Shown here piece after piece: positions 45,107 to 64,000 of a DNA stretch of 64,000 nt (position 1 is the stretch's first letter; every line of letters begins with the position of its first letter). The stretch comes from a virus (lineage: Duplodnaviria > Caudoviricetes). The notes beneath the pieces are model-generated. The model was not told the origin of the DNA. It saw nothing but the letters and a program-made list of their open reading frames with translations, and ran no database searches. The translations under genes and the position numbers were made by a program. The stretch lies in IMG/VR virus record IMGVR_UViG_3300021124_000001; one strand, 5' to 3'.

Positions 45107-45634
45107 ATGAGTACAAAACATTATATTAACAATGCCGATTTTTTAAAGGCATTAATCGAATACAAGAAACGCAAAGAGACTAATCCACAAGAACCAATCC
45201 CTGATTATATCGGGGCTTGCTGGATGAAAATTGCTGAAGGTTTATCACACAAACCAAACTTCATAAATTATCCACATAGAGAAGATATGATTGGTGATGG
45301 TATTGAAAACTGCCTAATGTATTTCGAGAACTTTGATCCAACCAAGTCTAACAATCCTTTTGCATACTTCACACAGATCGTTTACTACGCATTCCTAAGA
45401 AGAATCCAGAAAGAAAAGAAACAACTCTACGTCAAGTATAAGGCCACAGAACAGATGGGTATCCTTGACGAACATGAGTTCTTGGAGATGGAAGGCGGAG
45501 GCTCAAGACAGTTCGAATTGTATGACAACATTTCCGATTTTATCCAAACATATGAAGTTGGACAAAAGAAAAAGAAAGATGACAAGAAGTCTACCAAAAA
45601 GCCTAAAGGAATTGAAGTTTTTCTGGAAGAATAA
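45107..45634 (+). CDS. 55: Late sigma factor gp55
   Basis: HYINN..FL, LSHKPNFINY, NPFAYFTQI..YAFLRRIQKEKKQ. Confidence 0.93.
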   Translation: MSTKHYINNADFLKALIEYKKRKETNPQEPIPDYIGACWMKIAEGLSHKPNFINYPHREDMIGDGIENCLMYFENFDPTKSNNPFAYFTQIVYYAFLRRIQKEKKQLYVKYKATEQMGILDEHEFLEMEGGGSRQFELYDNISDFIQTYEVGQKKKKDDKKSTKKPKGIEVFLEE

Positions 45635-57436: not shown

Positions 57437-57511
57437 CCGGCGTTCGTATAATGGAAAATACAGCGGTCTTCTAAGCCGTGAATATGGGTTCGATTCCTTT
57501 ACGCCGGACCA
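57437..57511 (+). tRNA. tRNA-Arg(TCT)
   Basis: Cloverleaf, GTTCGA T-loop, encoded CCA. Confidence 0.85.
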
Positions 57512-57516
57512 AACTT

Positions 57517-57591
57517 ACGACCGTAGCATAGGGGTAGTGCCGAGAACTCATAATTCTTACGGGGTTGGTTCGAATCCAACCGGTCGTACCA
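57517..57591 (+). tRNA. tRNA-Met/Ile2(CAT)
   Basis: Cloverleaf, CTCATAA loop, CCA. Confidence 0.85.
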
Positions 57592-57596
57592 ATAAT

Positions 57597-58031
57597 ATGA
57601 AACAAAAATTTATTGATTATTTCATGGACATAGCCGAAAGGACTGCAAAGTTAAGTACGGCTAAACGTCTTCAAGTTGGTTCTATCATTGTAAAAGATAA
57701 TAGAATCGTTTCCATTGGCTATAATGGCATGCCTCCTGGTTGGACTAATGACTGTGAAGACTTATTATTTTCTCCTGAAACAGGATATCACACCAAAACT
57801 AAGCCAGAAGTCATCCATGCTGAGGCCAATGCGATTGCTAAACTTGCTAAGTCTAGCGAGTCTGGAGATGGTTCCACAATGTTCCTGACACATGCTCCAT
57901 GCATGGACTGTGCTAAACAGATATTCACAGCAGGTATCAATAGGGTTTTTTACAAAAATGAATACCGAAGTGACCAAGGTGTTGTTTTTTTACAACAGTG
58001 TGGAGTGGAAATAGACAAATACTCTAAATAG
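57597..58031 (+). CDS. cd: dCMP deaminase
   Basis: GYNGMP, HAEANAI, PCMDC. Confidence 0.92.
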   Translation: MKQKFIDYFMDIAERTAKLSTAKRLQVGSIIVKDNRIVSIGYNGMPPGWTNDCEDLLFSPETGYHTKTKPEVIHAEANAIAKLAKSSESGDGSTMFLTHAPCMDCAKQIFTAGINRVFYKNEYRSDQGVVFLQQCGVEIDKYSK

Positions 58032-58061
58032 GTGTATAATGGCCCCTTTGAAGGAGCACCT

Positions 58062-58571
58062 ATGTCTATTAAGATTGTTGGAAGTCCAGATGCCCGATTT
58101 ACACCTTATGTACACCGAGCAACCAAATTCTTTGCAGATAGTTTATTAACTAAGCAAATGCAAGATAACACCAAGATTGTTGTTAAGTTTAATAACAAGA
58201 TTGCCGATCAAGGATACGCCTCAGTTGAAGGATATAACTCCAAGAATATGCCTAGAGAATTTCTTATTGAGGTTCATCCAGGAATTGGAGCCGCAGAGAT
58301 ATTAAGAACCATTGCACATGAAATGGTGCATGTAAAACAGTTTGCTTATGGTCACACCAACGACACCCTAAGTAAATGGCATGATTTAAAAATCGATTCC
58401 GATAATATGGATTATTGGGATCAACCTTGGGAAATAGAAGCAAATGGTTTAGAATCTGGACTATTGACCAAATTCGCCACAGCAGAGAAGTTGTGGGAAG
58501 TGTTTTCGGAATTTAGGAATCCTAATCTTCCGATGAAGAAACGAAAAATAAAATGGAAAGTTAAAGAATAA
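58062..58571 (+). CDS. HEXXH zinc metallopeptidase-like protein
   Basis: AHEMVHVKQ, PWEIEA. Confidence 0.7.
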   Translation: MSIKIVGSPDARFTPYVHRATKFFADSLLTKQMQDNTKIVVKFNNKIADQGYASVEGYNSKNMPREFLIEVHPGIGAAEILRTIAHEMVHVKQFAYGHTNDTLSKWHDLKIDSDNMDYWDQPWEIEANGLESGLLTKFATAEKLWEVFSEFRNPNLPMKKRKIKWKVKE

Positions 58572-59122
58572 TGTCTCATCCTGCACAGATTGATTTTGTC
58601 AAAAGAGTTAAACAAGAAAACCCTGATTTTTTTAGTAATAAAAAGGTTATTGAGATTGGTAGTCTAGACATCAATGGAACAATTAGAGATTTTTTCACTG
58701 AGTGTGAATATGTTGGTGTCGATGTTGGTGAGGGACCACATGTTGATGTAGTTTGTCCTGGCCAAGAAGTGGATCATCCAGATAATACATATGATGTGTC
58801 TTGTTCATGTAATTGTTTTGAACATAATCCATATTGGGTTGAAACATTCAGAAACATGCATCGTATGACAAGAGAAGGTGGTTTAGTTTTTGTTTCTGTT
58901 CCAACAACTGGATGTCCAGAACACGGAACACACGGGCATAAACCAGATGATAGTCCATTGACCATTAAACGTGGTTGGAACTATTACAAGAATTTGACAG
59001 AGCAGGATTACCGTGATAACTTTAACCTAGATGAAATGTTTTCGTCTTACAAGTTTGAAGAAGTCCACATTCTAGGAAATCCTGAAGCACATGACATTTA
59101 TTTTTACGGATTTAAAAAATAA
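58571..59122 (+). CDS. SAM-dependent methyltransferase
   Basis: VIEIGS.DING, VGVD..EGP.VD, FEHNP.W. Confidence 0.8.
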   Translation: MSHPAQIDFVKRVKQENPDFFSNKKVIEIGSLDINGTIRDFFTECEYVGVDVGEGPHVDVVCPGQEVDHPDNTYDVSCSCNCFEHNPYWVETFRNMHRMTREGGLVFVSVPTTGCPEHGTHGHKPDDSPLTIKRGWNYYKNLTEQDYRDNFNLDEMFSSYKFEEVHILGNPEAHDIYFYGFKK

Positions 59123-59193
59123 TTTGTAAAAACTTGTTTTAAAAATAAAAGTTGTATATATAGAAGTATAGATTAATTTTTTCGGAGTTTATT

Positions 59194-59310
59194 TTGTTGT
59201 CTTTATCGAAATCCTCTTTGCTAACATGTGAATATCGCACACCGTTTATTGGTAGCGATAATCAGTCATGGGCGCATGGTTCAGAGGTTTTTGAAGGTAA
59301 GGACAAATAA
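59194..59310 (+). CDS. Putative attenuator leader peptide, 38 aa, containing all 20 amino acids counting the initiator
   Basis: GGAG SD at 59184, TTG start; MLSLSKSSLLTCEYRTPFIGSDNQSWAHGSEVFEGKDK; overlaps the antiterminator strand. Confidence 0.65.
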   Translation: MLSLSKSSLLTCEYRTPFIGSDNQSWAHGSEVFEGKDK

Positions 59311-59334
59311 AAGTAAAAGTCCAAGTAAATTTTC

Positions 59335-59374
59335 AAAAACCTCAGCAACGAAAGTTCTGAGGTTTTTTTGTTTT
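59335..59374 (+). terminator. Intrinsic terminator (3:4 hairpin) of the putative attenuator
   Basis: AAAAACCTCAG-c-AAC-GAAA-GTT-CTGAGGTTTTT followed by a T tract. Confidence 0.85.
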
Positions 59375-59377
59375 GGC

Positions 59378-59493
59378 GTTGTAATCTTACAACACTATGA
59401 AAAAGTTGTTGACATCCTGACCGAACCGTGTACAATAGCATCTTCGGTTGAGTAATCAATCAATTGTTCTTTAAAAAGTTAAGTGTATTTTTT
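59378..59493 (+). promoter_or_regulatory. tRNA-operon promoter 1: palindrome, sigma70 promoter, boxA
   Basis: GTTGTAATCTTACAAC; TTGACA(59409)-16-TACAAT; TGTTCTTTAAAAA at 59465. Confidence 0.75.
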
Positions 59494-59605
59494 TGGCCAT
59501 TCCGCAAGGAGTGGCCATACTCAAACGCATTAGATCCCTTTTATACTGTGCTGGACGTACTAAGCTACAGGCGGTATAGATCCCTTTTAATGTGTTTGAG
59601 TATGT

Positions 59606-59680
59606 TGGGGAGAAATCGATTGGAGCAGATATTGCGCTTTGACCGCAAGTGATAGGGTTCGATTCCCTACTCCCCTGCCA
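59606..59680 (+). tRNA. tRNA-Gln(TTG)
   Basis: TTGCG-CTTTGAC-CGCAA arm, T-loop, CCA. Confidence 0.8.
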
Positions 59681-59693
59681 AATAAATATATCT

Positions 59694-59879
59694 ATGATAG
59701 TAAATAACATAGTCAACAGATGGGACGTGGTGCAAAGCCAACGCCGACATATAGAGTATCGCACTCTAGAAGATCCTGTAACTCATAAAAAAGTTATAGA
59801 GGTCGAGGTACACCTTTACAATAAAAATGGTGTAGTACAGCCTGTTACTAAGGGAAACTCCGTAGATATAAAAGTATAG
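59694..59879 (+). CDS. Small hypothetical protein
   Basis: AATAAATA upstream; ORF fills the gap between two tRNAs. Confidence 0.45.
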   Translation: MIVNNIVNRWDVVQSQRRHIEYRTLEDPVTHKKVIEVEVHLYNKNGVVQPVTKGNSVDIKV

Positions 59880-59970
59880 GAAACGTGGCAGAGTCCGGTT
59901 TATTGCACCTGTCTTGAAAACAGACGGCTCTGAGAAGGGTCCGTGAGTTCGAATCTCACCGTTTCCACCA
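59879..59970 (+). tRNA. tRNA-Ser(TGA)
   Basis: Cloverleaf with long variable arm, CCA. Confidence 0.92.
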
Positions 59971-59988
59971 ATTTTATAAGGAGGCATT

Positions 59989-60573
59989 ATGCCAGCAGTA
60001 TTTCTAGTAAGTGACACACACTTTGGTCATACTGGTGTGTGCCGATTCATGCAAAACGATGGTGTTACAAAACTTAGGCCATGGACTGATCCAAATGAAA
60101 TGGATGAAGAAATGGTTAAGCGTTGGAACGAAACAGTAAGACCTAACGACAAAGTTTACCATCTTGGTGACGTTGTTATTAACCGTAAAGCACTAAGCAT
60201 TATGAGTAGGCTGAACGGTGATAAAGTTCTTATTCGTGGTAACCATGACATCTTCCGTGATGATGAATACAGACAATACTTCCGTGAACTACGTGCATAC
60301 CATGTAATGAACGGAATGATTCTGTCGCATATTCCAATTCATGAAGCAAGTCTTGGTCGTTTCGGTGTTAACATTCATGGACACCTACATTCAAATCGTG
60401 TGATGAAGAATGATCCATTTGGTCATCGTGAACCAATGATTGACACCAGATACCATTGCGTATGTGTTGAACAGACCGATTTTCGGCCTATTCTTTTTGA
60501 AGATGTTATCAAACGAATCAAAGAAGAAGGTGGTGAGGTTGGTTTCCGTAACGGAAACGGACCCACAATGTAA
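59989..60573 (+). CDS. Calcineurin-like metallophosphoesterase
   Basis: SDTHFGH, LGDV, GNHD, HGHLH. Confidence 0.9.
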   Translation: MPAVFLVSDTHFGHTGVCRFMQNDGVTKLRPWTDPNEMDEEMVKRWNETVRPNDKVYHLGDVVINRKALSIMSRLNGDKVLIRGNHDIFRDDEYRQYFRELRAYHVMNGMILSHIPIHEASLGRFGVNIHGHLHSNRVMKNDPFGHREPMIDTRYHCVCVEQTDFRPILFEDVIKRIKEEGGEVGFRNGNGPTM

Positions 60574-60575
60574 TT

Positions 60576-60665
60576 GGAGAGTGGGCAGGATGGTAATGCA
60601 CCGGTTTGCTAAACCGCAGACTATAGAAATATGGTCACAGGGTTCGACTCCCTGACTCTCCACCA
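60576..60665 (+). tRNA. tRNA-Ser(GCT)
   Basis: Cloverleaf with long variable arm, CCA. Confidence 0.9.
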
Positions 60666-60739
60666 AGTTGTGTTGCAACTGATTTGAGGAACTCCCGTCC
60701 ACCTCAATGAAAATGACAAAAAAACGGGGCCAAATTTAT

Positions 60740-60815
60740 GTACGTGTGACCCGAAAGGCTAGGGAACGGATTGCAAATCCGTTTTATGCAGGTTCGATTC
60801 CTGTCACGTACTCCA
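60740..60815 (+). tRNA. tRNA-Cys(GCA)
   Basis: Cloverleaf, U73, CCA. Confidence 0.9.
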
Positions 60816-60821
60816 AATTCT

Positions 60822-60927
60822 GTTGTATTTTTACAACAGTGGTTGACAAAGATGTTGGTTGTGCTATAATTCATCCATGAATTGAGAAATCAATCAATTG
60901 TTCTTTAAAAAGTTAAGTGTATTTTTT
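60822..60927 (+). promoter_or_regulatory. tRNA-operon promoter 2: palindrome, sigma70 promoter, boxA
   Basis: GTTGTATTTTTACAAC; TTGACA(60843)-16-TATAAT; 40-bp leader identical to 59454-59493. Confidence 0.8.
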
Positions 60928-61002
60928 ATTCCGTTGGACTTCTGGTGAGGTCAGTAGGCTTTCAACTTACGCAGGCGAGTTCGATCCTCGTACGGAATAC
61001 CA
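60928..61002 (+). tRNA. tRNA-Glu(TTC)
   Basis: Cloverleaf, CCA. Confidence 0.85.
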
Positions 61003-61199
61003 TTTATTAGTGTTATTGTGGAAAATTTCAGTGAACGCTGGATAGTGAATCTGTCAATGTGTGGTTAATTCGAATAGACTACGTATACAGTTGTTGTAAG
61101 AAAAGACCTTTGGGACGCCTTATGGAATAATCTTACACGTTAAAAACAAACGGTGGTACGGTGAAGGCCATCCATAACACAGTAACACTAATAAATGGT
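60999..61199 (+). ncRNA. Unknown ~200-nt RNA closed by a 22-bp terminal stem
   Basis: ACCATTTATTAGTGTTATTGTG / CACAGTAACACTAATAAATGGT; no ORF in the track. Confidence 0.5.
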
Positions 61200-61204
61200 A
61201 ACAT

Positions 61205-61279
61205 GCGGGTGTAACTCAGAGGCAGAGTATCTGGCTTTTAACCAGAGAGTCGAGATTTCGAAATTCTCCACCCGTACCA
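61205..61279 (+). tRNA. tRNA-Lys(TTT)
   Basis: Cloverleaf, CCA. Confidence 0.88.
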
Positions 61280-61287
61280 AATAATTT

Positions 61288-61364
61288 GCCCTGGTGACGG
61301 AATAGGTATACGTACTGGTCTTAGAAACCAGGTTTTGAGAGTTCGAGTCTCTCCTAGGGCACCA
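61288..61364 (+). tRNA. tRNA-Leu(TAG), short variable loop
   Basis: Cloverleaf, CCA. Confidence 0.85.
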
Positions 61365-61511
61365 AAGGCAGCGGATAGGTTACATTATCCAGTATGAGTC
61401 GCAAGGTACCGCGGTAAATCCTTGGGCAAGCAACAGTACACTCATGCAATGTAACAGGTGAGCAGTGATCTGCTTCACGGAGATACCTCAAGAATGTTCT
61501 CCACCAATTTA

Positions 61512-61586
61512 GGTCTGTAAGTGTTCATGGACGCACGTTGGCTTGTCACGCCAAAAGAAGGGGATCGTTACCCCTATAGACCGCCA
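61512..61586 (+). tRNA. tRNA-Asp(GTC)
   Basis: Cloverleaf, G73, T-loop ATCGTTA. Confidence 0.8.
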
Positions 61587-61591
61587 GTTTT

Positions 61592-61666
61592 GCCGATGTA
61601 GCTCAGAGGAAGAGCATTCGCTTGATAAGCGAAAGGCCGACATTTCGAAATTGTCCATCGGTACCA
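61592..61666 (+). tRNA. tRNA-Ile(GAT)
   Basis: Cloverleaf, CCA. Confidence 0.88.
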
Positions 61667-61859
61667 GAATCCCGTTACTACTTTCGTTAAAGTAGCGTTT
61701 GATTAGCGAGAGAGATCCGGTGGCAGAAGACCGTTAGCGGAGAAATCCAGAATCTGATAGGCAGTATTCCTCTGCACACAGACGCAAGAATAAAAGGAAT
61801 GGACAGAGTAACCGCTCAATTAAGGGCTTGTGTGGAAACAAGTAGCTTATCCTAATTTT

Positions 61860-61944
61860 GGAGATGCCGCCGTAATGGTATGGCAGGAGACTGTAAATCT
61901 TCCGACTTCGGTCACAATAGGTTCGATCCCTATCATCTCCACCA
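61860..61944 (+). tRNA. tRNA-Tyr(GTA)
   Basis: Cloverleaf with variable arm, CCA. Confidence 0.88.
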
Positions 61945-61959
61945 ATGTTAATAATTTAT

Positions 61960-62034
61960 GGGGGCAGTAGTGGGCTACGGGTATCCCTTGCAAGGATGCT
62001 GTCTAGAAGGATTCGATTTCCTCGGCCTCCACCA
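61960..62034 (+). tRNA. tRNA-Ala(TGC), atypical short D-arm
   Basis: G3:U70 identity pair, CTTGCAA loop, CCA. Confidence 0.7.
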
Positions 62035-62051
62035 TAGATATATAAGTTTTT

Positions 62052-62126
62052 GCCGACTTAGCACAGTGGTAGTGCAATCGCCTTGTAAGCGATAGGTCAT
62101 CAGTTCGAATCCGATAGTCGGCACCA
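62052..62126 (+). tRNA. tRNA-Thr(TGT)
   Basis: Canonical cloverleaf, CCA. Confidence 0.92.
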
Positions 62127-62133
62127 GTTTTAT

Positions 62134-62198
62134 GCGGGAGTTTCTAACAACGTTGGGGTCCACCCAATATCTACGTGGAAATCGTAGTTCCCGCTCCA
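62134..62198 (+). tRNA. Truncated D-armless tRNA-Gly(TCC)-like RNA
   Basis: GCGGGAG/TTCCCGC-T-CCA acceptor, TCC in loop, 65 nt. Confidence 0.5.
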
Positions 62199-62205
62199 GT
62201 TTTTT

Positions 62206-62282
62206 CGGAGTGTAGCACAGCCTGGTAGTGCGCCTGCTTTGGGAGCAGGAGGTCGTAGGTTCGAATCCTACTACTCCGACCA
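62206..62282 (+). tRNA. tRNA-Pro(TGG)
   Basis: Canonical cloverleaf, CCA. Confidence 0.93.
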
Positions 62283-62289
62283 TTTTTAT

Positions 62290-62368
62290 TCCCCATAATT
62301 CGAGCGTAGTGCACGGACCGGACTGTTAATCCGAGATTAGCTAGGAGCGTCACCTAGATGGGGAGCCA
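62290..62368 (+). tRNA. tRNA-Asn(GTT)
   Basis: CTGTTAA loop, G73-CCA, T-loop AGCGTCA. Confidence 0.75.
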
Positions 62369-62372
62369 ATTT

Positions 62373-62447
62373 GGTGATATAGCATAGACGGATATGCGGG
62401 GGTCTCATAAGCCTCAAAGGAAGGATCGTTACCTTCTATCACCACCA
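62373..62447 (+). tRNA. tRNA-Met/Ile2(CAT)
   Basis: Cloverleaf, T-loop ATCGTTA, CCA. Confidence 0.8.
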
Positions 62448-62930
62448 TATAAAAACACATTAGCCTACATCAGTACTAGGACGACTGTGCGATAAGCGGC
62501 TACCTAGATAAGCCCGCTAGTGTGTTTCTATATGGTAACAACGAAGACGACATGGAAAGATAGTGCAAAGGTATACAGTTGGTCTGGTTCGAAACAGGGT
62601 AACCCAATTTTATATTGAGCGTAGCATGACTGGCATCGCACCAGTAGTTAGTGGGTTCGATTCCCTCCGTTGTAATCATATAAAAACACATTCGCTTATA
62701 TTTTAACGGCTTGCAAGGCACGGGCGTATAAGAATATTGAGTGTGTTTCTATATGGTATGTAATGGCAGAAATGCGACCTAGAAGCGAGTGGACGAACAT
62801 GACTGTAGGCCACTAAGGTAGTCAACATTACACATCATATAAAAACACATTAACTCCTACTAGCAGGTGGGTAGGTTTGAAGTTCTGATGCTGAACGAAG
62901 GGTTCGAATCCCATAGTGTGTTTCTATATG
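62444..62930 (+). repeat. Three copies of the CATATAAAAACACATT...AGTGTGTTTCTATATGGT stem enclosing different inserts
   Basis: Copies at 62444-62536, 62677-62755 and 62836-62930. Confidence 0.85.
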
Positions 62931-62937
62931 GTTTTAT

Positions 62938-63015
62938 GCGCCTCTAGTTCAACTGGATAGAGCACCGGGCTACGAACCCGTGAGGTTGGGGATTCGAATT
63001 CCTCGGGGCGCACCA
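62938..63015 (+). tRNA. tRNA-Arg(ACG)
   Basis: Cloverleaf, CCA. Confidence 0.88.
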
Positions 63016-63033
63016 ATTTTAGGAGTATTAAAT

Positions 63034-63228
63034 ATGAGTGATGGTGGTAAAGGTTCAAATCCTCGACCATATAGTGTATCACAAGAGCAATTTGCTAATA
63101 ATTGGGATGCAATATTTGGTAAGGATAAGAAATCGAAACAAGAGAAGGCTCTTGATGAGTTGGCTCGAATTTCGGATGAGTTGGGACTCCACTATGATGA
63201 TGTGGAGAATCCATTAGTAAAGAAATAA
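63034..63228 (+). CDS. Small conserved phage protein (MSDGGKGS.PRP type)
   Basis: AGGAG SD, ATG at 63034. Confidence 0.6.
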   Translation: MSDGGKGSNPRPYSVSQEQFANNWDAIFGKDKKSKQEKALDELARISDELGLHYDDVENPLVKK

Positions 63229-63229
63229 T

Positions 63230-63303
63230 ATCTCAGTAGTGTAATGGCAGCACAACGATCTCCAAAATCGTTTGTGAGGGTTCGAGTCCTTCCTGGGATG
63301 CCA
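63230..63303 (+). tRNA. tRNA-Trp(CCA)
   Basis: Cloverleaf, G73-CCA. Confidence 0.88.
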
Positions 63304-63316
63304 ATAAAGGATTGAT

Positions 63317-63805
63317 ATGAAAAATTTCGACATAGAAAAAGTTAAGGAATTCTTGTCAGCACAAGGACCAGATACTAAAGTTTATTTGGGTGCAGACTCA
63401 GAAAGAATTCGTGTAAATGGTGTTTGGTATGCAGATTATGCCTTGGCTGTCGTAGTTCATATTGATGGCCGCCATGGTTGTAAAATCTTTGGTTACGTTG
63501 AACGTGAACTTGATTATGACCACAAAAAATCCAAACCTGCTATGCGTCTGATGTCAGAAGTATACAAGGTTTCAGAATTGTTCCAAAACCTCCAGGACGT
63601 TCTGGAAGACCGTCATGTAGAAGTGCACCTAGACTTGAACAAACAAGACATCCATGGTTCATCCTGTGTTGTCCATCAAGCAATTGGATATATAAAAGGC
63701 ACTTGTAACATGACACCAATGGTTAAACCAGATGCTCCAGCAGCATCATTCTGTGCAGACCGTTTGAAACGGATTCTTGCTGAACAGGAATTGGCTGAAG
63801 CGTAA
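63317..63805 (+). CDS. RNase H-like YkuK family protein
   Basis: VYLGADS, VVVH..G.HG.KIF, RLMSEV, EVHLDLN, KPDAPAAS..AD. Confidence 0.75.
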   Translation: MKNFDIEKVKEFLSAQGPDTKVYLGADSERIRVNGVWYADYALAVVVHIDGRHGCKIFGYVERELDYDHKKSKPAMRLMSEVYKVSELFQNLQDVLEDRHVEVHLDLNKQDIHGSSCVVHQAIGYIKGTCNMTPMVKPDAPAASFCADRLKRILAEQELAEA

Positions 63806-63895
63806 TAGTTCCGGGTTTGTTTACCCCGAGGATGACACGGCGGTTTCGGTGAGATTTAGTTCTCATCGACTCAGGGAGCCTAACGTAAACAATAT

Positions 63896-63969
63896 GCGGG
63901 TATGATGTAAAGGTAGCCTGTGACCTTGCCAAGGTTAGTGTGAGAGTTCGATTCTCTCTACCCGCTCCA
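63896..63969 (+). tRNA. tRNA-Gly(GCC)
   Basis: Cloverleaf, U73-CCA. Confidence 0.9.
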
Positions 63970-64000
63970 GTTTTTAGAATAGTCCGGCACGGACCGAAAG

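Follow-up and report, generated by a model that had tools for sequence, protein, structure and literature searches.

A putative ribosome-coupled attenuator sampling nearly all codons ahead of the tRNA array of a T4-like phage

The DNA analyzed here, a 64,000-nt stretch (the window) of IMG/VR record IMGVR_UViG_3300021124_000001 (Caudoviricetes), belongs to a T4-like phage and carries, ahead of an array of tRNA genes, what is quite probably a ribosome-coupled transcription attenuator. Its input would be how fast nearly all codon boxes are decoded, and its output the phage tRNA array. Sequence comparison of homologous leaders shows a conserved open reading frame (ORF), mutually exclusive antiterminator (2:3) and terminator (3:4) helices, a signature of selection for nearly every kind of codon, and codons that follow the tRNA set. 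From this layout we infer pausing of the polymerase, its coupling to the ribosome, the switching and the trigger, which may be starvation, tRNA cleavage or the drain on tRNAs late in infection.

Results

The leader in the window

The first-pass annotation had described a Shine-Dalgarno sequence followed by a TTG-initiated ORF of 38 codons, and both are present (Table 1); a second in-frame TTG, at 59197, is a possible alternative start. Its account of the codon content was correct on recounting: the 37 codons of the ORF encode all 19 non-Met residues, 16 of them within an 18-codon stretch, and the leader uses five different codons for Ser and three for Leu. Nineteen residues in 37 codons were reached in 0.2% of the equal-length windows in the proteins of the same phage and in 0.7% of base shuffles, and 16 residues in the best 18-codon window in 0.9% of cases. 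A run of codons for a single amino acid is absent from the ORF. Rfam gave no match for the leader, either to the amino-acid operon leaders, even at E values up to 5, or to T-box features (stem I specifier, T-box antiterminator motif).

The helices proposed in the first-pass annotation were also found again. They comprise the perfect 12-bp inverted repeat shared by strands 2 and 3, the pairing of 59206-17 with 59283-94 (11 of 12 positions, one being G-U) and a terminator of -16.3 kcal/mol (z -4.2) with its U tract, which a simple terminator scanner did not pick up owing to a bulge. In the window's copy the antiterminator has a folding energy of -21.1 kcal/mol (z -5.3), and the fold of the whole leader RNA a z of -5.0. 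A single 151-nt contig covers 59237-59386 at depth 4; it comes from one run whose RNA status is a guess and gives no evidence on expression.

Table 1. Coordinates of the leader, its helices and the tRNA array in the window
Feature	Position	Strand	Remarks
TATATA-type element, candidate late (gp55-type) promoter of the leader	59155-59162	+	One mismatch from the late motif ATAAATA
Shine-Dalgarno GGAG	59184-59187	+	From the sequence
Strand 1 (anti-antiterminator)	59185-59217	+	Pairs with 59283-59316 in untranslated RNA, hiding the ribosome-binding site
Leader ORF, 38 codons, TTG start	59194-59310	+	Modelled sensing window, codons 2-27
Internal hairpin within the ORF, candidate RNA-polymerase pause hairpin	59225-59270	+	-16 kcal/mol, z -3.3
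Strand 2, antiterminator 5' strand	59279-59298	+	Perfect core 59284-95
Strand 3, common to antiterminator and terminator	59329-59349	+	Core 59332-43
Intrinsic terminator, 3:4 hairpin and 7-U tract	59335-59369	+	From the fold; conserved with changes on both sides
Downstream module: palindrome 59378-93, sigma70 promoter 59409-36, boxA-like element 59465-77	59378-59493	+	From the sequence
tRNA array	59606-63969	+	16 ARAGORN genes, one Ala-like and one Asn-like
Non-canonical tRNA-Ala(UGC)	61960-62034	+	Found at a lower ARAGORN threshold
tRNA-Asn(GUU)-like gene	62290-62370	+	Read by eye

A family of leaders preceding tRNA genes

About 185 viral loci were gathered using the gene upstream of the leader (58032-58571) as bait, together with two DNA patterns; these loci were then searched with a profile and the peptides clustered at 65% identity. 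Uncultured T4-like phages yielded 92 distinct homologous leaders, which group into 31 peptide clusters. All 92 contain an in-frame ORF, of 30-47 codons, and share a layout consisting of a promoter-like element, the ORF, a G/U-rich strand at the ORF end and a terminator. The start is internal in 53 homologs, while in 39 an ATG lies at or near the predicted transcript start, so these appear leaderless. In each of the 87 leaders with enough downstream DNA, a tRNA gene follows on the same strand, the nearest being 9-308 bases away. The first-pass annotation had made its proposal depend on conservation in relatives, and the ORF, the antiterminator and the terminator are indeed kept, and co-vary, in the 31 clusters, with tRNA genes after them. 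The tree of these loci is approximate, as the genomes are probably mosaic.

Among cultured phages, blastn with the window's leader and with that of one relative returned short chance matches only; a metagenome pattern proved too loose, as none of the 80 loci that it listed fitted the leader profile. Judged by the clamp loader, the nearest cultured phages are marine T4-like viruses, about 63% identical. A 17-kb Methylophilaceae MAG contig carries a homologous leader and a tRNA-Gln (L187, 587-814). This is probably a binned phage contig and was not counted as host evidence; it may give a hint at the host group.

Several loci (L017, L022, L027, L031, L036 and L062) form a sub-family with a 30-codon leader and small arrays, of 10-13 tRNAs where the contig suffices; their leaders lack Ala and Gly codons and their arrays lack an Ala tRNA. 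In the window, a gene for a SAM-dependent methyltransferase (phrog_32762, 58571-59122) sits between the conserved upstream gene and the leader; it occurs in some relatives and is missing from the closest ones.

Mutually exclusive helices and a modelled switch

The 2:3 duplex was better than that of shuffled sequences in 29 of the 31 clusters, with a median across clusters of -20.5 kcal/mol versus -15.1 kcal/mol for the terminator, whose 5' arm it overlaps by a median of 9 nt. RNAalifold run on a MAFFT alignment recovered the terminator core only. As this alignment misplaces strand 2, shifting it between clades, we used a swap test, in which strand 2 was paired with its native strand 3 and with foreign ones; the native pairing was better than the foreign average in 31/31 clusters (permutation P<1e-5). 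The test held (P=1e-5) for the segment of strand 3 that lies beyond the terminator stem, for which no other partner is evident, and the co-variation between strands 2 and 3 includes T-A to G-C changes. The internal hairpin, which we infer to be a polymerase pause site, forms in all 31 clusters (swap test P<1e-5).

The first-pass annotation had recognized the 1:2, 2:3, 3:4 layout of the trp and his attenuators. Its 2:3 and 3:4 elements are conserved, while the 1:2 helix is strong in the window's copy (-24 kcal/mol) and weakly conserved across the family (P=0.01). According to these folds, the untranslated RNA would terminate in the window's copy and may read through in many relatives.

To model the switch, the nascent transcript was folded as far as the terminator loop while a ribosome footprint was imposed on it. 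With the ribosome upstream the 2:3 helix forms, and it is lost sharply about four codons before strand 2. In the window's copy, the model leaves the antiterminator free only when the A site holds one of codons 2-27, which represent 17 residues; His28 and Val32 fall beyond this sensing window and an internal Met is absent. The proposal that stalling on any tRNA would open the gate thus has to be narrowed to most residues. A footprint-constrained fold had been suggested as a check on the switch. The sharp transition is seen with nascent RNA; when the full leader is allowed to equilibrate, there is no clean switch, and in many clusters the terminator prevails although a ribosome sits in mid-leader. 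Since the equilibrium fold often favors the terminator, the outcome has to be settled kinetically, as it is in classical attenuators.

Codon content of the leaders

All 19 non-Met residues are encoded in the leaders of 18 of the 31 clusters, against about 0.2% by chance. We also scored only the codons before strand 2, thereby removing the contribution of this strand. This sensing window holds 16.4 residues in 24.9 codons, where the two alternative frames give 12.4 and 12.8 and proteins 12.7; its diversity is individually below P=0.05 in 23 clusters and exceeds base shuffles in 24, in the reading frame only (the strand-2 anchors of L027 and L144 were misplaced in this analysis, and both are kept in the totals). 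Cys, His, Trp and Gln are retained but change place from cluster to cluster. Together, these patterns fit selection on codon composition and not on a peptide motif. Val lies beyond the sensing window in 22/31 clusters, and its codon is probably a by-product of strand 2.

The tRNA array and its correspondence with the leader codons

The array comprises 18 tRNA genes within the window, where about 19 had been counted before; the Ala-like and Asn-like genes are missed by default ARAGORN and by Rfam, and they sit where relatives have those tRNAs. The array probably runs past base 64000, as four relatives (L188-L191) about 91% identical to the last kilobase of the window go on to His, Val, Thr, Phe and Leu tRNAs, with Met and Gly tRNAs also present in three. 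This continuation explains the His, Val and Phe codons in the window's leader. In relatives, complete arrays consist of 25-34 tRNAs for all 20 amino acids.

Long inverted repeats lie between the tRNA genes (59516-59604, 60998-61200, 62444-62536, 62674-62757 and 62833-62932) and enclose inserts that vary. The arms are almost the same in the last three, and a tRNA-like T-loop (62896-912) occurs in one insert; the fold of 59494-59605 has a z of -7.5. These elements are possibly small mobile hairpin cassettes or processing structures. Protein genes inside the array encode a phosphoesterase (phrog_547, 59989-60573), a short ORF product (63031-63228) and a member of an unknown family (phrog_11311, 63317-63805), with a possible role in tRNA repair or processing. 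A tRNA-Arg(UCU) and a CAU tRNA are located at 57437-57591, upstream of the leader and outside the array that it would gate. The window's leader lacks AGA and AGG codons and an internal ATG; across relatives the Arg match is not significant.

The first-pass annotation had placed the leader codons in the boxes read by the downstream tRNAs, and a codon is indeed present in the leader for all 17 tRNA types in the window (null 12.6, P=0.0009). In 17 relatives, leader codons cover 0.80-0.96 of the tRNA types, versus 0.6-0.75. An individual codon, ATA, was linked to its tRNA, as it occurs in 37 of the 39 leaders with a tRNA-Ile(UAU) gene in the array versus 4 of the 29 without it (cluster level p=0.0005, one of 12 codon-tRNA tests). 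A tRNA-Ile with this anticodon is unusual in bacteria, where AUA is normally read by a lysidine-modified CAU tRNA; here it was present in 39/68 scored loci (L011, L044 and L158 among them), with about 11 state changes on the tree. The ATA codon occupies position 4, 5, 7, 10 or 15, depending on the leader. On a tree built without the 5' codons, ATA and tRNA-Ile(UAU) change together in about 8 of 11 independent pairs and in none do they change in opposite directions (p about 0.008), and the flanking genes show no parallel ATA shift (20% versus 17%, p=0.52). The window's copy is devoid of the ATA codon, and no tRNA-Ile(UAU) is found inside the window.

The remaining 11 codon-tRNA pairs were not significant at the cluster level, with no match for Arg(UCU), Lys(CUU), Thr(GGU) and Leu(CAA), and about half of the leader codons have no corresponding phage tRNA where arrays are small. 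For these reasons the leader would seem only partly tailored to the cargo of the array, while monitoring most of the tRNA pool.

Promoters before and after the terminator

A TATATA element is found upstream of the leader in 30/31 clusters. The late motif from which the window's element differs occurs before the structural genes of the phage, which encodes a homolog of gp55, the late sigma factor, at 45107. No sigma70 -35 element was found upstream of the window's leader; its transcription likely starts at a late promoter or results from read-through from the upstream genes. Two sigma70 promoters follow the terminator, at 59409 (11/12 match) and 60843 (12/12 match), so the caveat that attenuation would govern only read-through or late transcription holds for the window's copy.

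A second, near-consensus promoter after the terminator exists in 23 clusters, including the window's copy, mostly with the palindrome and boxA. The other eight have no sigma70 promoter between the terminator and the first tRNA, and all eight have one before the leader; the attenuator is there the sole visible gate, and a downstream promoter is thus not part of the core design. In the window, the downstream module is duplicated at 60822-60927. In both copies the promoter spacer is 16 bp long and the leader, nearly the same over its 46 nt, contains a boxA of the rRNA type. Most relatives also have the palindrome and boxA, and boxA is kept by several without a second promoter.

These promoters bear on a first alternative, namely that the attenuator is real in the family but minor in the window's phage, where the terminator would serve mainly to close off the upstream operon and tRNA synthesis would depend on the promoters at 59409 and 60843. 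Their close matches and the boxA that they carry speak for it, as do the lack of a -35 before the leader and a promoter-like site at 58012 that could drive the upstream genes into the leader's terminator. Against it, the 12-bp core of the 2:3 helix is perfect in this copy even though its sequence departs from the family consensus on both sides, all 19 residues are kept, and the absence of ATA agrees with that of an in-window tRNA-Ile(UAU). From these comparisons the window's lineage looks like one under ongoing selection on the leader, and we consider this alternative unlikely.

What the leader responds to

A somewhat less likely alternative is that the leader is a general sensor of translation rate comparable to E. 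coli toiL, that its signals would be antibiotics, ribosome toxins or low initiation, and that its codon variety is a side effect of RNA structure. The modelled geometry would report a lag of any cause, the best-conserved codons lie within the internal hairpin or strand 2, and many unmatched codons persist with small arrays. However, such a side effect is at odds with the restriction of the diversity to the reading frame, above base shuffles in most clusters, and with the presence of ATA, at varying positions, almost only where the UAU tRNA is encoded.

It is very improbable that the residue sequence itself matters, whether as an arrest peptide of the TnaC, ErmCL or MifM type or as a peptide acting in trans. 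The Glu-Tyr-Arg core of the peptide is nearly invariant, but it coincides with the 5' arm of the conserved hairpin; moreover, leader length varies over the family range, core indels are mostly multiples of three, and Trp, Cys and His relocate. Finally, although AT-rich DNA often contains short ORFs and inverted repeats of 12 bp, a chance ORF beside an ordinary terminator is largely refuted by the conservation, frame-specific diversity and co-variation over the 31 clusters, and we give it hardly any credence.

Discussion

Our results point to an attenuator that would read the decoding speed of nearly all codons and gate the phage tRNA array. In the mechanism that we propose, the polymerase would pause at the internal hairpin until a ribosome has loaded. 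When charged tRNAs are plentiful, the ribosome would reach the last ~10 codons and cover strand 2, so that the terminator forms and transcription stops at 59369. If one of the tRNAs used at codons 2-27 is in short supply, uncharged or cut, the ribosome would lag, the 2:3 helix would form first and the polymerase would continue through boxA into the array. The fresh phage tRNAs would then ease the lag, closing a negative feedback loop. In the window's copy this gate would supplement, or late in infection replace, the output of the sigma70 promoter at 59409.

Leader-peptide attenuators are known from amino-acid operons (trpL, hisL, leuL), and those of thrL (Thr, Ile) and ilvGMEDA (Ile, Leu, Val) are multivalent. 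The pheL leader is a further example (PMC3082878). As in the trp, his, phe, leu, thr and ilv leaders, the phage element has a short ORF to be translated, a candidate pause hairpin and an antiterminator that excludes an intrinsic terminator, and the position of the ribosome would set the output. It differs from them in its codon make-up, with each kind occurring about once and no runs devoted to one, two or three amino acids, in controlling tRNA genes instead of biosynthetic enzymes, in its phage location, in that the anti-antiterminator is not generally conserved, and in that 39 of the 92 leaders appear leaderless. Arrest-peptide leaders (TnaC, ErmCL, SecM, MifM) keep a fixed distance from the residue motif to the stall, whereas in the phage leader both residues and spacing turn over.

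Closer parallels exist for single features. The toiL upstream ORF of E. coli topAI-yjhQ is likewise multipurpose, with stalling at different positions leading to one output (PMC12121999); however, it senses antibiotics and acts through occlusion of a ribosome-binding site and Rho, whereas the phage leader has an intrinsic terminator and codons that track the tRNA set. The polycysteine short-ORF attenuators of mycobacteria share the leaderless start and ribosome stalling, but they respond to one amino acid and exert translational control of protein genes (10.1101/834739). The trn operon of Anabaena is also a long tRNA array induced by translational stress; its control is different, relying on the ribbon-helix-helix repressor TrcR at promoter repeats, and the words attenuation and leader are not used in the two papers on it (PMC8421152, PMC10272220). 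An attenuator on tRNA genes was not found in the literature searched, in which subscription journals are mostly uncovered. The phage leader most likely attenuates a phage tRNA array in response to nearly every codon, an arrangement of which we found no published case.

Phage tRNAs as a means of countering anticodon nucleases are the subject of PMC10264068, which deals with changes in the anticodon loop; regulation of the tRNA genes was not found in the passages searched. That work suggests a likely purpose for the leader, the replacement of depleted host tRNAs. More tentatively, as a possibility to which we give somewhat less than even weight, it could be a counter-defence sensor that samples nearly the whole pool, detects tRNA cleavage by anticodon nucleases (or starvation) and switches on the full replacement set, and that is re-edited codon by codon as tRNAs are gained or lost.

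What phages gain from their tRNA genes has been an unanswered question for more than 50 years, the candidates being codon compensation and rescue from host tRNA depletion (PMC10264068). An array that is switched on when decoding slows would favor on-demand rescue, and the question becomes testable with a 200-base reporter. If true, our proposal would bring tRNA genes, and an input from nearly every codon, within the scope of attenuation, and the leader would represent a compact natural sensor of the health of the tRNA pool, usable in screens for tRNA-cleaving defence systems.
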